DNA of 63,117 nucleotides, filler included, from Anaerolineae bacterium (GTDB lineage Bacteria > Chloroflexota > Anaerolineae > Epilineales > Epilineaceae), in NCBI GenBank assembly GCA_029262755.1. It is 6 parts of 6 records of this genome, joined end to end, with 100 filler letters (N's around TTAATTAATTAA, not from the genome) between each part and the next. Parts side by side here need not be neighbours in the genome. Positions count along the whole stretch, not along the records: positions 50,854 to 63,117 come from JAJCYU010000282.1; 5 more parts are not named here. The stretch is one strand, 5' to 3'. The position numbers were made by a program. Of the stretch, positions 54,001 to 57,000 are shown in pieces (position 1 is the first letter of the stretch; every line of letters starts with the position of its first letter).

Positions 54001-57000
54001 CGAGCATACGTACGCGGCTTTCCTTGCAAAGTGGCGGAGGAGGAAGTGATGTGGCAGCGGGCTCGAATCCTACCCCGCGACGATTGCGCTGCGGAAACGC
54101 ACGGGCTCGAGGTCTGGGTCCAGGTCGGACCGCCGACACTGTCCAAGATAGCGAAGATCGGGACTGATGGAGCGTGGTGCGGAGGGGCCAGCAATCTTGT
54201 GGTGTTCGATACACACGTGACCGTGCCTGGTTTTGCTCAAGCTCTGGCCGTTGCAGCGGACGGCGTGGAACTTCTCCCGGAGTTCTCCGACAACGTGCAG
54301 CCGGTCGAGTACGGAGATTGGGTGGGTGGTGGCGCCCATGGCTGACCCACTTCCGCCGGCGAAAGTCCCGGCCCCGAGCGTCGGGACTCTGGTGAACCGG
54401 AAAGACTCGGACGGAGGTTCTTCAACATGAAAGACCCAATGGGGCGAGAAGTGATCGAAGTCGGCGGGGTGATGTCCGAATCGTGCGTATCGCACCGGAC
54501 AGGGCACCCGCGCGTCAACGTCGTACTGGAGAGGGTCGGGGCCAACGAAGTGTTCCAGCTCGGCGTTGCCGAGGCCAAGAGCGTGGCCGCGCAACTGCTT
54601 GAAGCAGCGGAAGCTGCCGAGTCTGACGCTTTCCTATTCGACTTCGCCATCAAGGAACTTGGATTGTGTCGCGAAGAAGGGGCGGGTCTCATCGCCCGGT
54701 TTCGCGACTTCCGAACGGAGAGGAACAGCAGCAAATGAATATTCTGGCAATCGATCCGGCGACGAAATGCGGGTGGGCTCACTCATGCGGCGAGTCCGGG
54801 ACCTGGGACCTCTCGGTACGCCGGGACGAGAGCGCAGGCATGCGCCTCATTCGGTTCCGTGGAAAGCTCCAGGAGATCGTCAGCAACGTCGGTGTCGACC
54901 TGGTCGTCTACGAAGCGGCCCGTCACGCGGCACCAAACATGCAGGGTGCCCTGACCGTCCAGGCGATGATCCAGGGCGTGCTCGTCACCTGGTGCGAAGA
55001 CAACCACGCCGAGTACCGCGGGGTGAGCCCGTCCGAGGTGAAGAAGCACGCCACCGGTAAGGGGAACGCGAACAAGGATCTGATGATCGCGGCCGCGAGG
55101 GAGCGGTGGCCGGAGGTTCGGATCCAGGACGACAACCAAGCGGACGCGCTGTGGATCCTCGACCTCGCCGAGCAGCTATACGCACTGGGCCTCGACGAAG
55201 GGGCTAAGCAGACGGGATAACATCAGAGGCTGCGGTTCGCCTCGGCGGCCGGGTTCAATCAATCGGCGCGAGTCTGGATTGACTCGCCTGCCTACCATCG
55301 GATTGGATGCTGATATGGCCAACCCGAAGCACGTTGAGGTTGTGTTGCAGGGGGCAGTTGCGATTCGTGAGTGGCGCGCCAAGCACCCCGCGAAGACCCT
55401 CCATCTGCGCGGCGCGGACCTGGCCGGCGCGGACCTGAGCGGTGCGACCCTGACCGGCGCGGACCTGAGCGACGCGAACCTGCACCACGCGGACCTGCAC
55501 CACGCGGACCTGCACCACGCGGACCTGAGCCGCGCGAACCTGACCGGCGCGAACCTGAGCGGCGTGGACCTGAATGGCGCGGTCCTGAGCGGCGTGACCG
55601 TGGACAGCGCGGACCTGAGCGGCGCGAACCTGAATGGCGCGGTCCTGAGCCGCGCGGTCCTGAATAGCGCGGTCCTGCGCCGCGCGGCCCTGAACGGCGC
55701 GAACCTGACCGGCGCGAACCTGACCGGCGCGGATCTGAGCGGCGCGAGTCTCAACCGCTGTATACTTCGCTCGGCCACTTTGACAAGCGCGAGCTTTACC
55801 GGCGCTCGATTCGCTGACACCACCCTTGTCGATTGTGATCTGATGGAGGCCTTTGGTCTCGCAGAAGTGCGCCACGAAGGACCGAGTGATTTGGGGACTA
55901 GATCTCTGGTGCGGTCGAAGGGGAGGATTCCACCGGAATTTCTGCGCGGCTGCGGCCTCGACGACTGGGAGGTCGAGGCGGTCAAGCTCTACGATCCGTC
56001 ACTGTCGGACAAGGATCGGGTCGACGTGCTCTACGAGATAGATCGCCTTCGCGGGAGCAACCCGATCCGCTTCGACTCCTGTTTCATCAGCTACTCCCAC
56101 AGCAACAAGGAGTTTGCGAAGCGGCTCCACCACGACCTCCAAGAAGCCGGCGTGCGTTGCTGGCTCGACGACGAAGACCTCAGAATCGGAGACAAACTCC
56201 GAACGACCATCGACGTCGCGATCGAGTCACACAAGAAGCTTCTGTTGATTCTGTCCGAGCCGGCGATCGCAAGCGCGTGGGTCGAGAACGAAGTTGAGAA
56301 AGCGCTGGAGGAAGAGAAGCGTCGCAAAGACTCGGTCCTCTTCCCGGTCCGGATCGACGACATGATCCTCGACGAGGAGGAAGTCCGTCACGGATGGGCG
56401 CGGACGCTGAGGAGTCGCCACATCGGGGACTTCACGAAGGCGGAGCTCTACGAGAGCAGCTTCGAAAGGCTTCTCCGCGACCTCCGCGCGAAGCCAGGGG
56501 AACACAGCTAAGTGAGATCAGATCTGCGATTGGAAGACCTCGGGAAGTCCAAGCGCGTCGACGCGAAGCTGATGAACGTGAAGATCCCAACCGAGCTGAG
56601 TGACAAGATCGACCGTGTCGCGCGCGAGCTTGGGTGCTCGAAGACCGCGCTGATCATCGCGTTGTTCAACGAGGGGCTGGATGCAGCGGCCGAGCAACTC
56701 CGGGGAATGAAAAAGCCGAAGGCCCCCGTCGTGCCTGCGGGGAAGCGGTGTTCCGTTTCCGGATGCGAGCGGCAGCGTACCGCCAAGGGGCTCTGCCAAA
56801 ACCACTACCAGGCGGCGAGGCGGCGGAAGTAAGCCAGTGGTTCGAGGAGGTGCGAAACTCCTCAAACCGCTCGTATGGGTCGCTTGTCGGGCCCAACCGT
56901 CCAGCGATAGATCCCTGCGAAGGAAAGGATCGCTGTACATGCGAGACTGAGCACGAGGGCTGCCTCGGGGACAATGCTTCTTGGCGCTAGCTGCTGCGGC

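Follow-up and report, generated by a model that had tools for sequence, protein, structure and literature searches.

What is the function of a protein that joins a pentapeptide-repeat β-helix to a TIR domain and is encoded among phage-type genes? The question is raised by a gene at positions 55315–56511 (plus strand) of the window, the 63,117-nucleotide stretch of DNA from an Anaerolineae bacterium that was analysed here. The survey's finding had read its product, P0001, as a one-protein immune sensor in which the repeats serve as a DNA-shaped bait for a DNA-binding protein of an invader. The protein and its relatives, here called PRP-TIR, probably represent a one-gene anti-phage sensor, but no result obtained here shows that it acts as a DNA mimic. 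Text searches of the literature yielded no paper on the PRP-TIR architecture and no experiment on any member, in agreement with the earlier statement that the family lacks an experimental study. A paper on a Piscirickettsia plasmid and a Chlorobium comparison mention both domains, but only in separate genes.

Domain architecture of the PRP-TIR protein

The reading frame without stops extends from 55279 to 56511 on the plus strand, and the ATG at position 55315 gives a protein of 398 amino acids plus the stop codon. Position 55315 is the correct start because the first residues, MANPKHVE, agree with the consensus start MANxEHL of the family alignment. A scan of positions 54600–57000 identified no promoter-like site and one terminator-like site, on the minus strand, which is below the numbers obtained from shuffled sequences.

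From its N-terminus onwards, P0001 comprises a conserved cap helix, a β-helix of pentapeptide repeats, a linker with strong conservation and the TIR domain. The Pentapeptide family of Pfam matches about residues 28–185 (E-value 2e-41, 139.6 bits, cut-off 20.2) and TIR_2 (PF13676) residues 257–387 (2.6e-26, 92.9 bits, cut-off 28), both far above chance; PF01582 scores 42.3 bits against a cut-off of 21.3. These matches confirm the earlier description of pentapeptide repeats followed by TIR_2/TIR in one protein. P0001 combines a rod-like domain of repeats with a TIR domain that is intact.

The N-terminal cap comprises residues 1–24 (55315–55386, plus strand), which form two short helices, residues 4–11 and 14–23, in the AlphaFold2 (AF2) model (pLDDT about 95). 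Its family consensus is MANxEHLxILKQGVExWNxWR, with G13 and W20 conserved in at least 90% of the aligned sequences. The following β-helix, residues 28–185 approximately (55396–55869, plus strand), has about eight coils and is the variable module of the family. It was modelled with a pLDDT of 98–99 and a strand every five residues, which is the right-handed quadrilateral β-helix typical of the tandem A(D/N)LXX repeats of PF00805.

The TIR domain, residues 253–391 (56071–56487, plus strand), resembles those of AbTIR and PdTIR. The NAD+ hydrolase AbTIR (8g83, 7uwg) and PdTIR (3h16) are its nearest sequence matches in the PDB, with E-values of about 1e-8. The catalytic glutamate, which had been left unchecked in the survey's finding, has a clear candidate in E326 (codon 56290–56292, plus strand) of the motif W322-V-E-N-E326. 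It aligns with the W-x-x-x-E glutamate of AbTIR, PdTIR and TcpB, and all 40 aligned family members carry it. The W-x-x-x-E glutamate, in helix αC, is the catalytic residue of those enzymes, and E326 is its putative counterpart. Judged by this motif, the TIR domain of P0001 is catalytically intact; it is most similar to TIRs of known NADase or defence type and would be expected to have NADase activity. The C-terminus of the domain carries the family-specific signature RHIGDF...LLRDL, in which D372 and F373 are invariant in the family alignment. Models of PADLOC match only the TIR portion, with the E-values reported earlier (SAVED_TIR 2.4e-17, PDC-S66 4.7e-16, bSEFIR 8.2e-12, ThsB 9.9e-8), and the PDC-S66 match is confined to positions 151–240 of the 282 in the profile, corresponding to its TIR part. 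The TIR domain is only moderately confident in the monomer model (pLDDT 41–83 per 10-residue block), so that the model allows no inference on autoinhibition.

Predicted dimerisation through the conserved linker

The linker, or C-terminal cap, of the β-helix spans residues 186–252 (55870–56070, plus strand). It contains the invariant columns H187, P190-S191 and F209-L210-R211-G212-C213-G214, followed by helices 217–226 and 232–246, and was modelled by AF2 with a pLDDT of 95–97 up to about residue 240. P0001 is predicted to form a symmetric tail-to-tail dimer through this segment. The homodimer prediction scored 0.62 (0.61, 0.62 and 0.63 in individual runs), against 0.00 for the best control; at least 66% of the contacts were common to the runs, and the pLDDT of the partner was at least 81. 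The mark used was reached by 20 of 30 solved homo-pairs and by 1 of 23 single chains, a calibration that holds only roughly for P0001 because the prediction used our own alignment. The passing score may also reflect a likeness to solved pentapeptide dimers. MfpA and Qnr form tail-to-tail dimers, through the C-terminal ends of their helices.

The predicted interface is symmetric, involves residues 190–197, 213–215 and 218–248, and is located on the invariant linker; apart from the linker and the last coils, no part of the protein contributes to it. One of the interface helices is missing from the short linker of 33 out of 110 relatives, about a third, and TIR-only paralogues have no linker.

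A patchily distributed family with diverging repeat modules

The PRP-TIR family is very large: 7522 of 8000 scored candidate proteins match at E≤1e-10. The best 120 relatives listed all combine PF00805 with PF13676 and are 331–604 residues long, so the repeated search reproduced the earlier observation; the earlier count of 5310 proteins at E≤1e-25 is consistent with the present one. At least 578 species genomes contain a relative, from many phyla, including Acidobacteriota, Chloroflexota, Chlorobiota and Cyanobacteria, and from one archaeon. Among 40 genomes related to the host, two have a relative (E≤1e-30), neither of them one of the 20 high-quality genomes. The distribution of the family is patchy and accessory. 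Relatives were found at four loci among the 2.9 million viral contigs of IMG/VR, in each case together with genuine phage genes for structural or packaging proteins. Coverage of 80% of P0001 was reached by none of the 118 GenBank phage records and none of the 31 plasmid records with a match; the 118 phage records reflect stand-alone pentapeptide proteins, which are common in phages. The host genome encodes at least five further large TIR proteins. Placement of the host by one housekeeping gene was ambiguous, the best hits (65–69% identity) being MAGs labelled Deltaproteobacteria/Myxococcales, Anaerolineales and Phycisphaerae.

Tandem arrays with one or more further full PRP-TIR genes within three genes occur at 9 of 79 family loci. 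The N-terminal cap and repeats are the most diverged region in five of six paralogue pairs (at one locus, L019, the TIR domains compare at 80% and the repeats at 30%). At two other loci (L014 and L073), the same TIR domain is attached to different N-termini, namely a second TIR, a hydrophobic segment or a helical region, without the linker. The combination of a diverging repeat module with a constant TIR cassette would fit receptor-like evolution, and we count it in favour of a sensor. Variation in repeat number may, on the other hand, stem from neutral slippage rather than diversifying selection.

Among 120 longer proteins listed, pentapeptide arrays stand beside conflict-type partners, namely NACHT in 5, PF00656 in 6 and PF20703 in 10, which agrees with the published view of pentapeptide-repeat proteins as sensor repeats that build superstructures (PMC7159879, PMC8195603 and a 2026 ParA preprint). 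Both pentapeptide repeats and TIR are retained in five of these longer proteins, one of which has added ATPase families, and fusion to an NTPase is uncommon, with no more than three cases among the 120 (P0135, P0173 and P0205).

Gene neighbourhoods of the family

Neighbourhoods were compared at the 79 loci using crude longest-ORF gene calls. The 557 neighbours within four genes fell into 511 clusters, and the sole recurrent cluster consisted of paralogues. A gene on the same strand begins within 40 bp downstream at only 10 of the 79 loci. PRP-TIR is a single protein without a conserved partner gene. No SIR2, SLOG or Macro gene, as expected of a Thoeris partner, was present among the 292 genes within two positions of PRP-TIR at these loci or on the contig of P0001, and the 79 neighbourhoods likewise contained no linked gene for a gyrase-related or other DNA enzyme.

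Defence genes were not enriched around PRP-TIR. With paralogues left out, PADLOC matches at E≤1e-10 were obtained for 27 of the 292 genes within two positions and for 15 of 146 distal genes, located at least 7 kb away at the same loci (Fisher p=0.73). Complete defence systems adjoin single loci (IetAS at L015, HmaBC at L074, DrmD at L031, type IIG RM at L035 and DRT UG13 at L042), and plain housekeeping genes, among them those for SecDF, CysS, GatCA and polyphosphate kinase, account for many of the neighbours. The only class concentrated nearby was paralogous TIR genes (12 of 292 proximal against 1 of 146 distal genes, p=0.07); another TIR-domain gene lies within two genes at 13 of the 79 loci. 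Because the controlled test was negative for non-paralogue matches, location in defence islands is not used here as evidence, and the case for an immune role is weaker than the survey's finding implied.

Proposed mechanism of PRP-TIR

Based on the domain architecture, the predicted dimer and the distribution of the family, we give slightly better than even chances to the reading that PRP-TIR is a stand-alone dimeric sensor of the abortive-infection type, whose variable β-helix recognises an invader and whose TIR domain depletes NAD+. The trigger, the activation step, the NADase activity and the immune role are what we infer in the following model. The product would be a cytosolic conflict protein that acts on its own. 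The conserved linker would tie two chains tail to tail, so that the β-helix rods point outwards and the TIR domains lie near the centre. The variable β-helix may provide the surface that recognises a molecule from the invader, most likely a protein of a phage. Binding of the target would gather dimers or free the TIR domains, resulting in the higher-order TIR assembly required for catalysis. Cleavage of NAD+ by means of E326 would then lead to depletion of NAD+ or to an ADPR-type product and stop the infected cell. Of the earlier proposal, the one-protein immune sensor thus persists in part: it is consistent with the single protein, the intact TIR domain, the patchy spread, the arrays with variable repeats and the occasional carriage by real phages, and it gains nothing from the defence-gene neighbourhood.

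The β-helix could instead be a rigid spacer and dimerisation scaffold without a sensing function, with the TIR domain either acting as a ThsB-type signal maker for an unlinked effector or being governed solely by its expression level, in the manner of a toxin-like selfish or kin-conflict gene. AbTIR-family TIRs make cyclic ADPR isomers, which counts for such a role. The only interface predicted for P0001 is formed by the linker and the last coils, and the helix has no known binding site. The ThsB model matches weakly (1e-7), products of the TIR domain could be read elsewhere in a host with at least five further large TIR proteins, and a change in repeat number can be neutral. Against this reading, the 292 nearby genes include no SIR2, SLOG or Macro-type partner, and a pure spacer would need no strongly conserved N-terminal cap. 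Arrays that exchange the N-terminal module over a constant TIR domain also suit a sensor-plus-effector layout better. We consider the scaffold unlikely.

The β-helix and DNA mimicry

The repeat part of P0001 is most similar to cyanobacterial pentapeptide proteins. Its best Foldseek matches are HetL-derived designs, Np275/276 and HetL (prob 1.00 to solved pentapeptide-repeat proteins), and the best NCBIfam models are those of HetL and Alr5209, with 90.4 bits each, below their cut-offs of 260 and 125. P0001 is neither a Qnr protein (NF033086, 49.8 bits against a cut-off of 240) nor an MfpA protein (NF000349, 55.2 against 360). The quadrilateral β-helix is common to Qnr, MfpA and AlbG, which were matched by Foldseek with E-values of 8e-8 to 2e-6. 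The repeat region of P0001 is acidic, with 14 Asp, 1 Glu and 7 Arg residues and a net charge of −8. In 110 relatives, which are 37–49% identical proteins, the array ranges from 90 to 270 residues, or 4.5 to 13.5 coils, a threefold variation in length; the net charge lies between −27 and +3 (median −8), with 9 of the 110 at or above zero. An atlas search with linker region and TIR families excluded yielded no clusters other than those of stand-alone pentapeptide proteins, with scores of at most 0.90, and serves only as a lead.

These properties bear on the proposal that the dimeric β-helix mimics B-DNA in the manner of MfpA and Qnr, and that the TIR NADase is turned on when a DNA-binding protein from the invader docks to it. 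In a variant, the rod would mimic a nucleic-acid duplex, and an anti-restriction, replication or packaging protein would clamp it, cross-link dimers and assemble active TIRs; we hold this elaboration to be improbable. The shared fold, the acidic repeats and the predicted symmetric dimer, joined where the helix ends C-terminally as in MfpA and Qnr, speak for mimicry. Against it, the repeats lie outside the mimic families and closest to HetL, Alr5209 and HetL-derived structures, neither charge nor length is conserved, no gyrase-related or other DNA-enzyme gene is linked to PRP-TIR, and nothing connects it with a DNA-binding target. Most pentapeptide proteins with known partners, HetL for example, bind targets other than DNA enzymes. 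Sensing by decoy DNA is thus unsupported, and we assign the reading a low probability. Its novelty is also limited: Kaur et al. 2020 (PMC7159879) already suggested that pentapeptide repeats of conflict systems may act on DNA-binding proteins. Activation of a TIR domain by a DNA-like bait would still be new and, if true, would be a sensing and activation principle for TIR immunity that dispenses with an NTPase switch, in thousands of proteins.

The same similarity to HetL, to which a developmental signalling role is attributed in cyanobacteria, could point to a non-immune housekeeping or regulatory role in NAD+ homeostasis or HetL-like signalling. The many housekeeping neighbours and the negative defence-gene control would be in line with it. 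A housekeeping gene would, however, hardly be limited to 2 of 40 related genomes and absent from the 20 high-quality ones, or be scattered across many phyla and an archaeon, and diversified tandem copies and phage carriage are atypical of such genes. This role is improbable, and the dimeric sensor remains the preferred reading.

Phage-like surroundings of the PRP-TIR gene

The gene belongs to a block of 12 genes of phage or mobile-element type, most of them small and all in one orientation (50900–56832, plus strand), with PHROG matches to HNH, HTH and RuvC-like proteins and Pfam matches to HTH_3/HTH_31 and DNA_pol_B_thumb. Immediately upstream is a Holliday-junction resolvase of phage type (54735–55220, plus strand), which we regard as context outside the system. 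The earlier description of this neighbour as RusA-like was mistaken, since it is RuvC-like (phrog_159, 6.7e-28; NCBIfam RuvC, 1.9e-6; Pfam RuvC, 2.3e-4). It matches 12 loci in viral contigs and is 70% identical to its best match, a protein on IMG/VR contig L191; it had no match to solved structures at E≤1. In the four contigs compared (L191–L194), only the resolvase was common, and a variable 'moron slot' beside it was rejected for lack of synteny.

Directly after the stop codon of PRP-TIR follows a gene for a 106-residue protein (56512–56832, plus strand), which is context and not conserved at other loci. Its N-terminus has a weak ribbon-helix-helix (RHH) match (NCBIfam BrnA, 1.6e-4, residues 15–52, below the cut-off) and its C-terminus an HNH-like zinc-ribbon (PHROG HNH matches over residues 74–104). 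A coupled antitoxin-like gene was rejected as a family feature, since a coupled downstream gene encoding fewer than 100 residues occurs at only 3 of the 79 loci. The Beta_helix protein further downstream (57680–58876, minus strand), next to lgt, had been called tail-spike-like, a label that is unsupported because the protein has no PHROG match. The phage-like character of the surroundings therefore holds for the plus-strand block, with its HNH, HTH and RuvC-like genes and the 70% identity of the resolvase, and not beyond it. Compared at the DNA level with the 40 related genomes, the whole 12.3-kb contig matched only in short stretches within the repeats, which makes a presence/absence comparison impossible. 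One DNA sequencing run, of a biofilm metagenome, contains the stretch and is probably its source; no RNA run containing it is listed.

The copy in this genome may ride on a phage-like mobile segment, as is frequent for prophage-borne defence genes. That PRP-TIR is instead a phage gene directed against the host or rival phages, a counter-defence or takeover factor that destroys NAD-derived signals or whose β-helix blocks a host defence protein, is very improbable: the phage-like block, the four viral contigs with relatives beside structural or packaging genes, the frequency of stand-alone pentapeptide proteins in phages (118 records) and a phage pentapeptide protein that counters the Sucellos defence (bioRxiv 10.1101/2024.07.02.601686) weigh little against four loci in 2.9 million viral contigs as opposed to at least 578 species genomes, no phage or plasmid record with 80% coverage, most chromosomal copies among ordinary genes, and a prophage location that suits prophage-encoded defence equally.

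Significance and comparison with known systems

If the stand-alone sensor is correctly proposed, PRP-TIR would be among the simplest TIR immune receptors known, in which a linker for dimerisation connects a repeat sensor to a TIR domain, with neither an NTPase nor a partner, and the pentapeptide β-helix would join LRR, TPR and WD40 repeats as a scaffold for pathogen recognition. The family is very large and resides in environmental phyla thinly covered by defence catalogues, and PADLOC recognises only its TIR half. Its regular, rigid and length-adjustable helix would be attractive for studying how target binding leads to TIR assembly, and the tandem arrays offer natural experiments on specificity.

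The TIR domain of PRP-TIR is related in sequence to AbTIR, PdTIR and TcpB (8g83, 7uwg, 3h16 and 4lqc; E-values of about 1e-8 to 1e-4), with which it has in common the βA motif (F-I-S-Y/H), the W-x-x-x-E glutamate and the region of the BB loop. The N-termini of those proteins are short or form a coiled coil, whereas PRP-TIR has the pentapeptide β-helix and the RHIGDF...LLRDL signature. The Thoeris protein ThsB and the single-domain defence TIRs, PDC-S66 and bSEFIR are likewise matched in the TIR portion only (9.9e-8, 4.7e-16 and 8.2e-12), and PRP-TIR differs from Thoeris in having no ThsA-type partner within two genes at the 79 loci. The repeat part is matched best, in sequence and in structure, by the cyanobacterial proteins HetL, Np275/Np276 and Alr5209, but they consist of repeats only, and the N-terminal cap and linker motifs are specific to the PRP-TIR family. 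Qnr, MfpA and AlbG share the quadrilateral β-helix, and the dimer predicted for P0001, through the C-terminal end of its roughly eight-coil helix, would resemble the geometry of these mimics. PRP-TIR differs from them in its scores, far below the Qnr and MfpA cut-offs, in the lack of a conserved length or charge, in the presence of the TIR domain and in the missing link to a topoisomerase gene.

A precedent for a pentapeptide-repeat module in a defence effector is HalA of the validated Hailong system, here compared by description only. HalA is described as a fusion of pentapeptide repeats with a potassium-channel domain (PMC13586616), and its channel is gated by oligo-dA from the partner HalB (review PMC13434031); PRP-TIR has a TIR domain in place of the channel and no partner. 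Effector TIR domains combined with variable repeats are also known from TIR-STAND and NLR-like proteins, for which Kaur et al. 2020 (PMC7159879) and the 2026 ParA preprint name pentapeptide repeats. P0001 contains no NTPase or P-loop family according to Pfam and NCBIfam, and no NACHT, NB-ARC or AAA_16 domain. The order of its modules is reversed, with the repeats N-terminal and the TIR domain C-terminal, whereas the repeats of TIR-STAND and NLR-like proteins are C-terminal, and a predicted dimerisation linker occupies the place of the NTPase.

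Architecture and predicted dimer of the PRP-TIR protein

The plus-strand open reading frame at positions 55279–56511 of the window encodes, from an ATG at 55315, the 398-residue protein P0001, which combines a pentapeptide-repeat part (PRP) with a TIR domain. The annotated start is right, because the N-terminus MANPKHVE agrees with the consensus start MANxEHL of the 39 relatives aligned with P0001 (alignment A1, 40 sequences). The last contig of the window begins at 50854, and the segment at about 50790–50853 translates as runs of X from N bases, a spacer between joined MAG contigs. 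Since the window consists of contigs joined in this manner, no gene before 50854 counts as a neighbour of the PRP-TIR gene. P0001 matches the Pfam profiles Pentapeptide (E = 2e-41, 139.6 bits, cut-off 20.2) and TIR_2 (2.6e-26, 92.9 bits, cut-off 28), which bears out the survey's finding of a pentapeptide array and a TIR domain in one 398-residue protein. The PADLOC values quoted there were reproduced, and PADLOC profiles match the TIR portion only.

A database search in which 8000 candidates were scored recovered 7522 proteins at E ≤ 1e-10. The best 120 relatives listed all carry PF00805 and PF13676, are 331–604 residues long, and have identities of 37–49%, the query itself aside. Alignment A1 divides PRP-TIR proteins into five parts. 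The N-terminal cap has the consensus MANxEHLxILKQGVExWNxWR, in which G13 and W20 reach at least 90% conservation, and is followed by a pentapeptide array of very unequal length among members. The linker contains invariant H187, F209, L210, G212, and G214 and near-invariant P190, S191, and R211; position 213 has Cys as its consensus and carries Ala or Ile in some members. A direct check confirmed the linker motif HEGPS...IPPEFLRGCGL in P0001. The fourth part is the TIR domain; the fifth, RHIGDF...LLRDL at the C-terminus, is peculiar to the family and contains the invariant residues D372 and F373. All landmarks were located in 110 of the 120 relatives; in these, the array measures 90–270 residues (4.5–13.5 coils) and its net charge ranges from −27 to +3 (median −8; at or above zero in nine). 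The linker falls into two discrete length classes in these proteins, of 28 residues (33 proteins) and of 48 (66 proteins).

The AlphaFold2 model of P0001 calculated with A1 has a mean pLDDT of 85.6, with values of 94–99 from the cap through the β-helix and into the linker as far as about residue 240, and of 41–83 per ten-residue block in the TIR domain. Foldseek ranked solenoids designed from HetL highest, together with Np275/276 and HetL itself; Qnr, AlbG, and MfpA followed lower, at E-values of 8e-8 to 2e-6. Self-association was predicted from two copies of P0001 with alignment A1 and three controls. The dimer scored 0.62 (runs 0.61, 0.62, and 0.63) against 0.00 for the best control, at least 66% of contacts were common to the runs, and the partner pLDDT was at least 81. 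In calibration, the pass mark was reached by 20 of 30 solved homo-pairs and by 1 of 23 solved single chains, counts that are only rough here because A1 was supplied as the alignment, and a pass may mirror likeness to solved pentapeptide dimers. The predicted symmetric interface comprises residues 130–173, which form the last coils, 190–197, 213–215, and 218–248, with self-contacts such as 194:194, 222:222, and 239:239. In the model, the interface coincides exactly with the conserved linker. Because the symmetric interface lies on the linker and the last coils, the predicted assembly is a tail-to-tail dimer with the two TIR domains near its centre. Where the linker is of the short type, as in a third of the family, only one predicted interface helix is left, and the interface must be smaller.

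The TIR domain and its combinations in the family

The C-terminal part of P0001 alone is nearest, among solved structures, to AbTIR (8g83, 7uwg) and PdTIR (3h16), at about 1e-8; TcpB/BtpA-type and plant TIR domains rank next. The residues W322-V-E-N-E326 align on the W-x-x-x-E motif of the AbTIR/PdTIR-type structures. The glutamate of this motif, which we take to be the catalytic residue of TIR NADases, had been left unchecked in the survey; it is present as E326 (codon 56290–56292) and is invariant in A1, making the TIR domain of P0001 potentially an active enzyme.

At least 578 species-representative genomes contain a relative. By record title, the best 79 loci comprise 31 Acidobacteriota-type, 13 Chloroflexota, 6 Chlorobiota, 6 Cyanobacteria, 6 Alphaproteobacteria, 4 Desulfobacterota-type, and others. 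One of these, on a 152-kb contig of a Thermoplasmata archaeon MAG (L038, DASPYU010000021.1), is a full-length relative with 42% identity over residues 1–391, and reflects either cross-domain transfer or a binning error. The distribution is patchy: among genomes of the window's family, order, and class, 2 of 40 match at E ≤ 1e-30, as do 0 of the 20 high-quality ones.

Open reading frames were called crudely in 83 loci, and four of these (L018, L021, L043, and L087) were dropped after the focal gene was lost. Within four genes of the focal gene, the remaining 79 loci contain 557 neighbours in 511 clusters; the sole recurrent cluster, present in 12 loci, is made up of paralogues of the PRP-TIR, TIR-only, or PRP-only kind. 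No conserved partner gene was found among these neighbours, and a same-strand gene follows within 40 bp downstream in only 10 of the 79 loci. Nine loci hold at least one further full PRP-TIR gene within three genes, and L014 and L073 hold at least four TIR genes in a row. The cap together with the repeats is the most diverged region in five of six paralogue pairs, the exception being L011. Identities of the TIR domain and the repeats are 80% and 30% in the L019 pair and 73% and 38% in that of L014; the L067 pair shares 88% in the linker, 64% in the TIR domain, and 38% in the repeats. TIR-only array members belong to the same TIR subfamily, including RHIGDF...LLRDL, and lack the linker; their N-termini are instead a second TIR domain, a hydrophobic segment, or a helical region. 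Because these paralogues keep the TIR subfamily without the linker and behind other N-termini, the TIR domain acts as an unchanging cassette, and the linker is part of the β-helix module.

At L014:4684–9370 and L073:10447–13550, the cassette is joined to pentapeptide arrays of unlike length, to a second TIR domain, to a hydrophobic segment that is possibly membrane-bound, and to a helical region. Of 120 longer proteins listed, five keep both PRP and TIR, and in many others pentapeptide arrays occur with PF05729 NACHT (5), PF00656, presumably caspase (6), or PF20703 (10). Rare longer relatives contain a whole PRP-TIR (97–98% query coverage) together with what we take to be ATPase-type families: P0135 (964 residues) adds PF13175, PF13304, and PF02463, presumably AAA_15, AAA_21, and SMC_N, and P0173 and P0205 (941 residues) add PF20703.

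The genome of the window also encodes, on other contigs, at least five paralogous giant proteins (1144–1324 residues) with, in this order, TIR_2, Guanylate_cyc (class III nucleotide cyclase), NACHT or AAA_22, and then FGE-sulfatase or TPR; a sixth protein of this type has TIR and TPR only. Their loci are L184:3091–7062 (G000:C277), L186:2–3790 (C223), L187:3410–7309 (C218), L189:2–3433 (C30), L188:2–3925 (C255), and L185:2293–5469 (C315). The combination of TIR, cyclase, and STAND in these giants is striking.

Proposed mechanism

A mechanism can be proposed which we favour on a narrow balance of probability: PRP-TIR would be a stand-alone immune protein, whose β-helix senses an invader and whose TIR domain cleaves NAD+, so that the cell is arrested. 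The surface of the helix would bind a molecule of the invader, upon which dimers would cluster or the TIR domains be freed. SARM1, plant TNLs, AbTIR filaments, SPARTA, and TIR-SAVED all depend on TIR–TIR assembly for NADase activity. In PRP-TIR, such assembly would switch on NAD+ cleavage, and the infected cell would be arrested. Observed in these proteins are the two-domain architecture, an intact catalytic motif, a variable helix with a constant linker and TIR domain, and no partner gene; dimerization through the linker is predicted. That the helix is a scaffold only, or that the TIR domain makes a signal, is a reading to which we assign a small chance.

Genomic neighbourhood

Within two positions of the PRP-TIR gene, the 79 loci contain 292 genes, whose Pfam matches include another TIR domain in 13 loci, CHAT in 3, and NACHT in 2. 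The toxin–antitoxin components among them are HepT, PIN_10/DUF433, CopG, BrnT, and PIN_12 with Abi_alpha; mobile or defence-type genes are transposases (4 loci), an integrase together with a DrmD-like helicase, a type ISP restriction enzyme, and HEPN-DUF499. Housekeeping genes are represented by SecDF, CysS, GatCA, LeuA, polyphosphate kinase, and SmpB. In the Acidobacteriota loci L056:9237–9758 and L057:9375–9899, a PRP-TIR paralogue pair lies directly downstream of smpB, and in L057 a BrnT toxin gene comes just after the pair. SmpB is the partner of tmRNA, and its gene is a classic neighbourhood of island integration.

The 292 proximal proteins were compared with PADLOC at E ≤ 1e-10, with 146 ORFs drawn at random from the 217 lying at least 7 kb away in the same loci as a control. 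Matches of any kind numbered 39 of 292 proximal and 16 of 146 distal. Non-paralogue matches were not enriched nearby (27/292, 9.2%, versus 15/146, 10.3%; Fisher p = 0.73), and paralogous TIR genes made up 12 of 292 proximal and 1 of 146 distal proteins (p = 0.07), in comparisons for which paralogue labels were assigned after the results had been seen and related loci are not independent. Two explanations are left: enrichment that is equal throughout the 20-kb surroundings, or a rate of raw PADLOC matches of about 10% anywhere. Some loci adjoin complete known or candidate systems: IetA and IetS (L015), HmaB and HmaC (L074), PDC-M71A/B (L089), DRT UG13 (L042), and a PycTIR-like gene (L093). Because the argument from a defence island fails the distal control, the immune reading rests on the relatives of the TIR domain, the accessory and mobile behaviour of the genes, and the receptor-like evolution of the family, and not on neighbourhood statistics. 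With housekeeping genes on one side and these features on the other, we regard a non-immune function as improbable.

Relation to DNA mimics

The survey had proposed that the repeats act as decoy DNA that senses an invader. The fold is common to the repeats of P0001 and the mimic families, most family members are moderately acidic, and the geometry of the predicted dimer fits as well. However, P0001 reaches 49.8 bits where the NCBIfam cut-off for Qnr is 240 and 55.2 bits where that for MfpA is 360, and the 90.4 bits each for the cyanobacterial HetL and Alr5209 are likewise under their cut-offs. Because the scores for Qnr and MfpA are so far below the cut-offs, the repeat domain is, by sequence, not a member of the mimic families. 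Furthermore, neither array length nor charge is conserved among the 110 relatives, and among the neighbours of the 79 loci no gene for a topoisomerase or another DNA enzyme is linked to the family. The decoy mechanism is thus unsupported, and we give it only a slim likelihood. The thought is also not wholly new: Kaur et al. (2020; PMC7159879) remarked that such repeats in conflict systems may act on proteins that bind DNA.

Connection with phages

None of 118 matching GenBank phage records covers 80% of P0001, because those phages hold repeat-only proteins, and neither does any of 31 matching plasmid records. IMG/VR yielded four loci with PRP-TIR, all with genuine phage genes: a small terminase and primase (L090), a tape measure (L091), a major tail protein and adaptor (L092), and a major head protein and large terminase (L093). 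On the last of these (L093:502–6614), the adjoining PycTIR-like gene, a CAP12/Pycsar-type TIR effector by the PDC-S35 and PycTIR models, is back to back with PRP-TIR, both next to the genes for the major head protein and large terminase, so that two unlike TIR genes occupy one phage 'moron' position.

In the window, the PRP-TIR gene lies at the end of a block (50900–56832) of small genes that run in one direction and include PHROG matches to HNH, HTH, and RuvC-like proteins. The resolvase of the block shares 70% identity with one encoded on a viral contig; beyond it, nothing is common to the block and that contig or three others. To place this copy on a phage-like segment is therefore reasonable, but such a setting is not typical of the family. 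Two neighbours were reassigned. The upstream resolvase, described as RusA-like, is RuvC-like in three libraries. The supposed tail-spike-like protein (57680–58876, minus strand, next to lgt) has no PHROG match; with its hydrophobic N-terminus and Cys- and Gly-rich parallel β-helix (Beta_helix 3.7e-6, NosD 5e-4), it looks like a surface or secreted protein of the host. The 106-residue gene at 56512–56832 (plus strand) begins with the base that directly follows the PRP-TIR stop codon. Its product combines a weak N-terminal likeness to the RHH antitoxin BrnA (1.6e-4, under the cut-off) with C-terminal zinc-ribbon parts of HNH endonucleases (PHROG, 1.3e-7), and could be a local regulator or antitoxin; the gene is not conserved in other PRP-TIR loci. 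The 200-residue protein at 51863–52465 (plus strand) is a putative minimal PolX-like nucleotidyltransferase in the block. It matches the DNA polymerase-β thumb (3.9e-7) and, weakly, the palm (2.5e-3); PHROG, PADLOC, and NCBIfam gave nothing.

A pentapeptide-repeat protein of a phage is described as countering Sucellos (bioRxiv 10.1101/2024.07.02.601686), and four PRP-TIR copies lie among phage genes, yet we consider phage counter-defence a most improbable role for the family.

Comparison with known systems

In passages matching our literature text searches, no paper was found that describes or tests the two-domain architecture of PRP and TIR. Aravind-group papers treat pentapeptide repeats as generic superstructure-forming modules of conflict proteins, and an effector bearing them is described in the validated Hailong system (PMC13586616). 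A trigger of the PRP-TIR family, above all a DNA-binding one, would make it far more interesting. AbTIR, which with PdTIR is the closest solved relative of its TIR domain by sequence, is an NAD+ hydrolase. The plan of an effector with a repeat sensor is known; the PRP-TIR family is a widespread candidate of this kind and, in contrast to the known effector-plus-repeat-sensor proteins, does without an NTPase.
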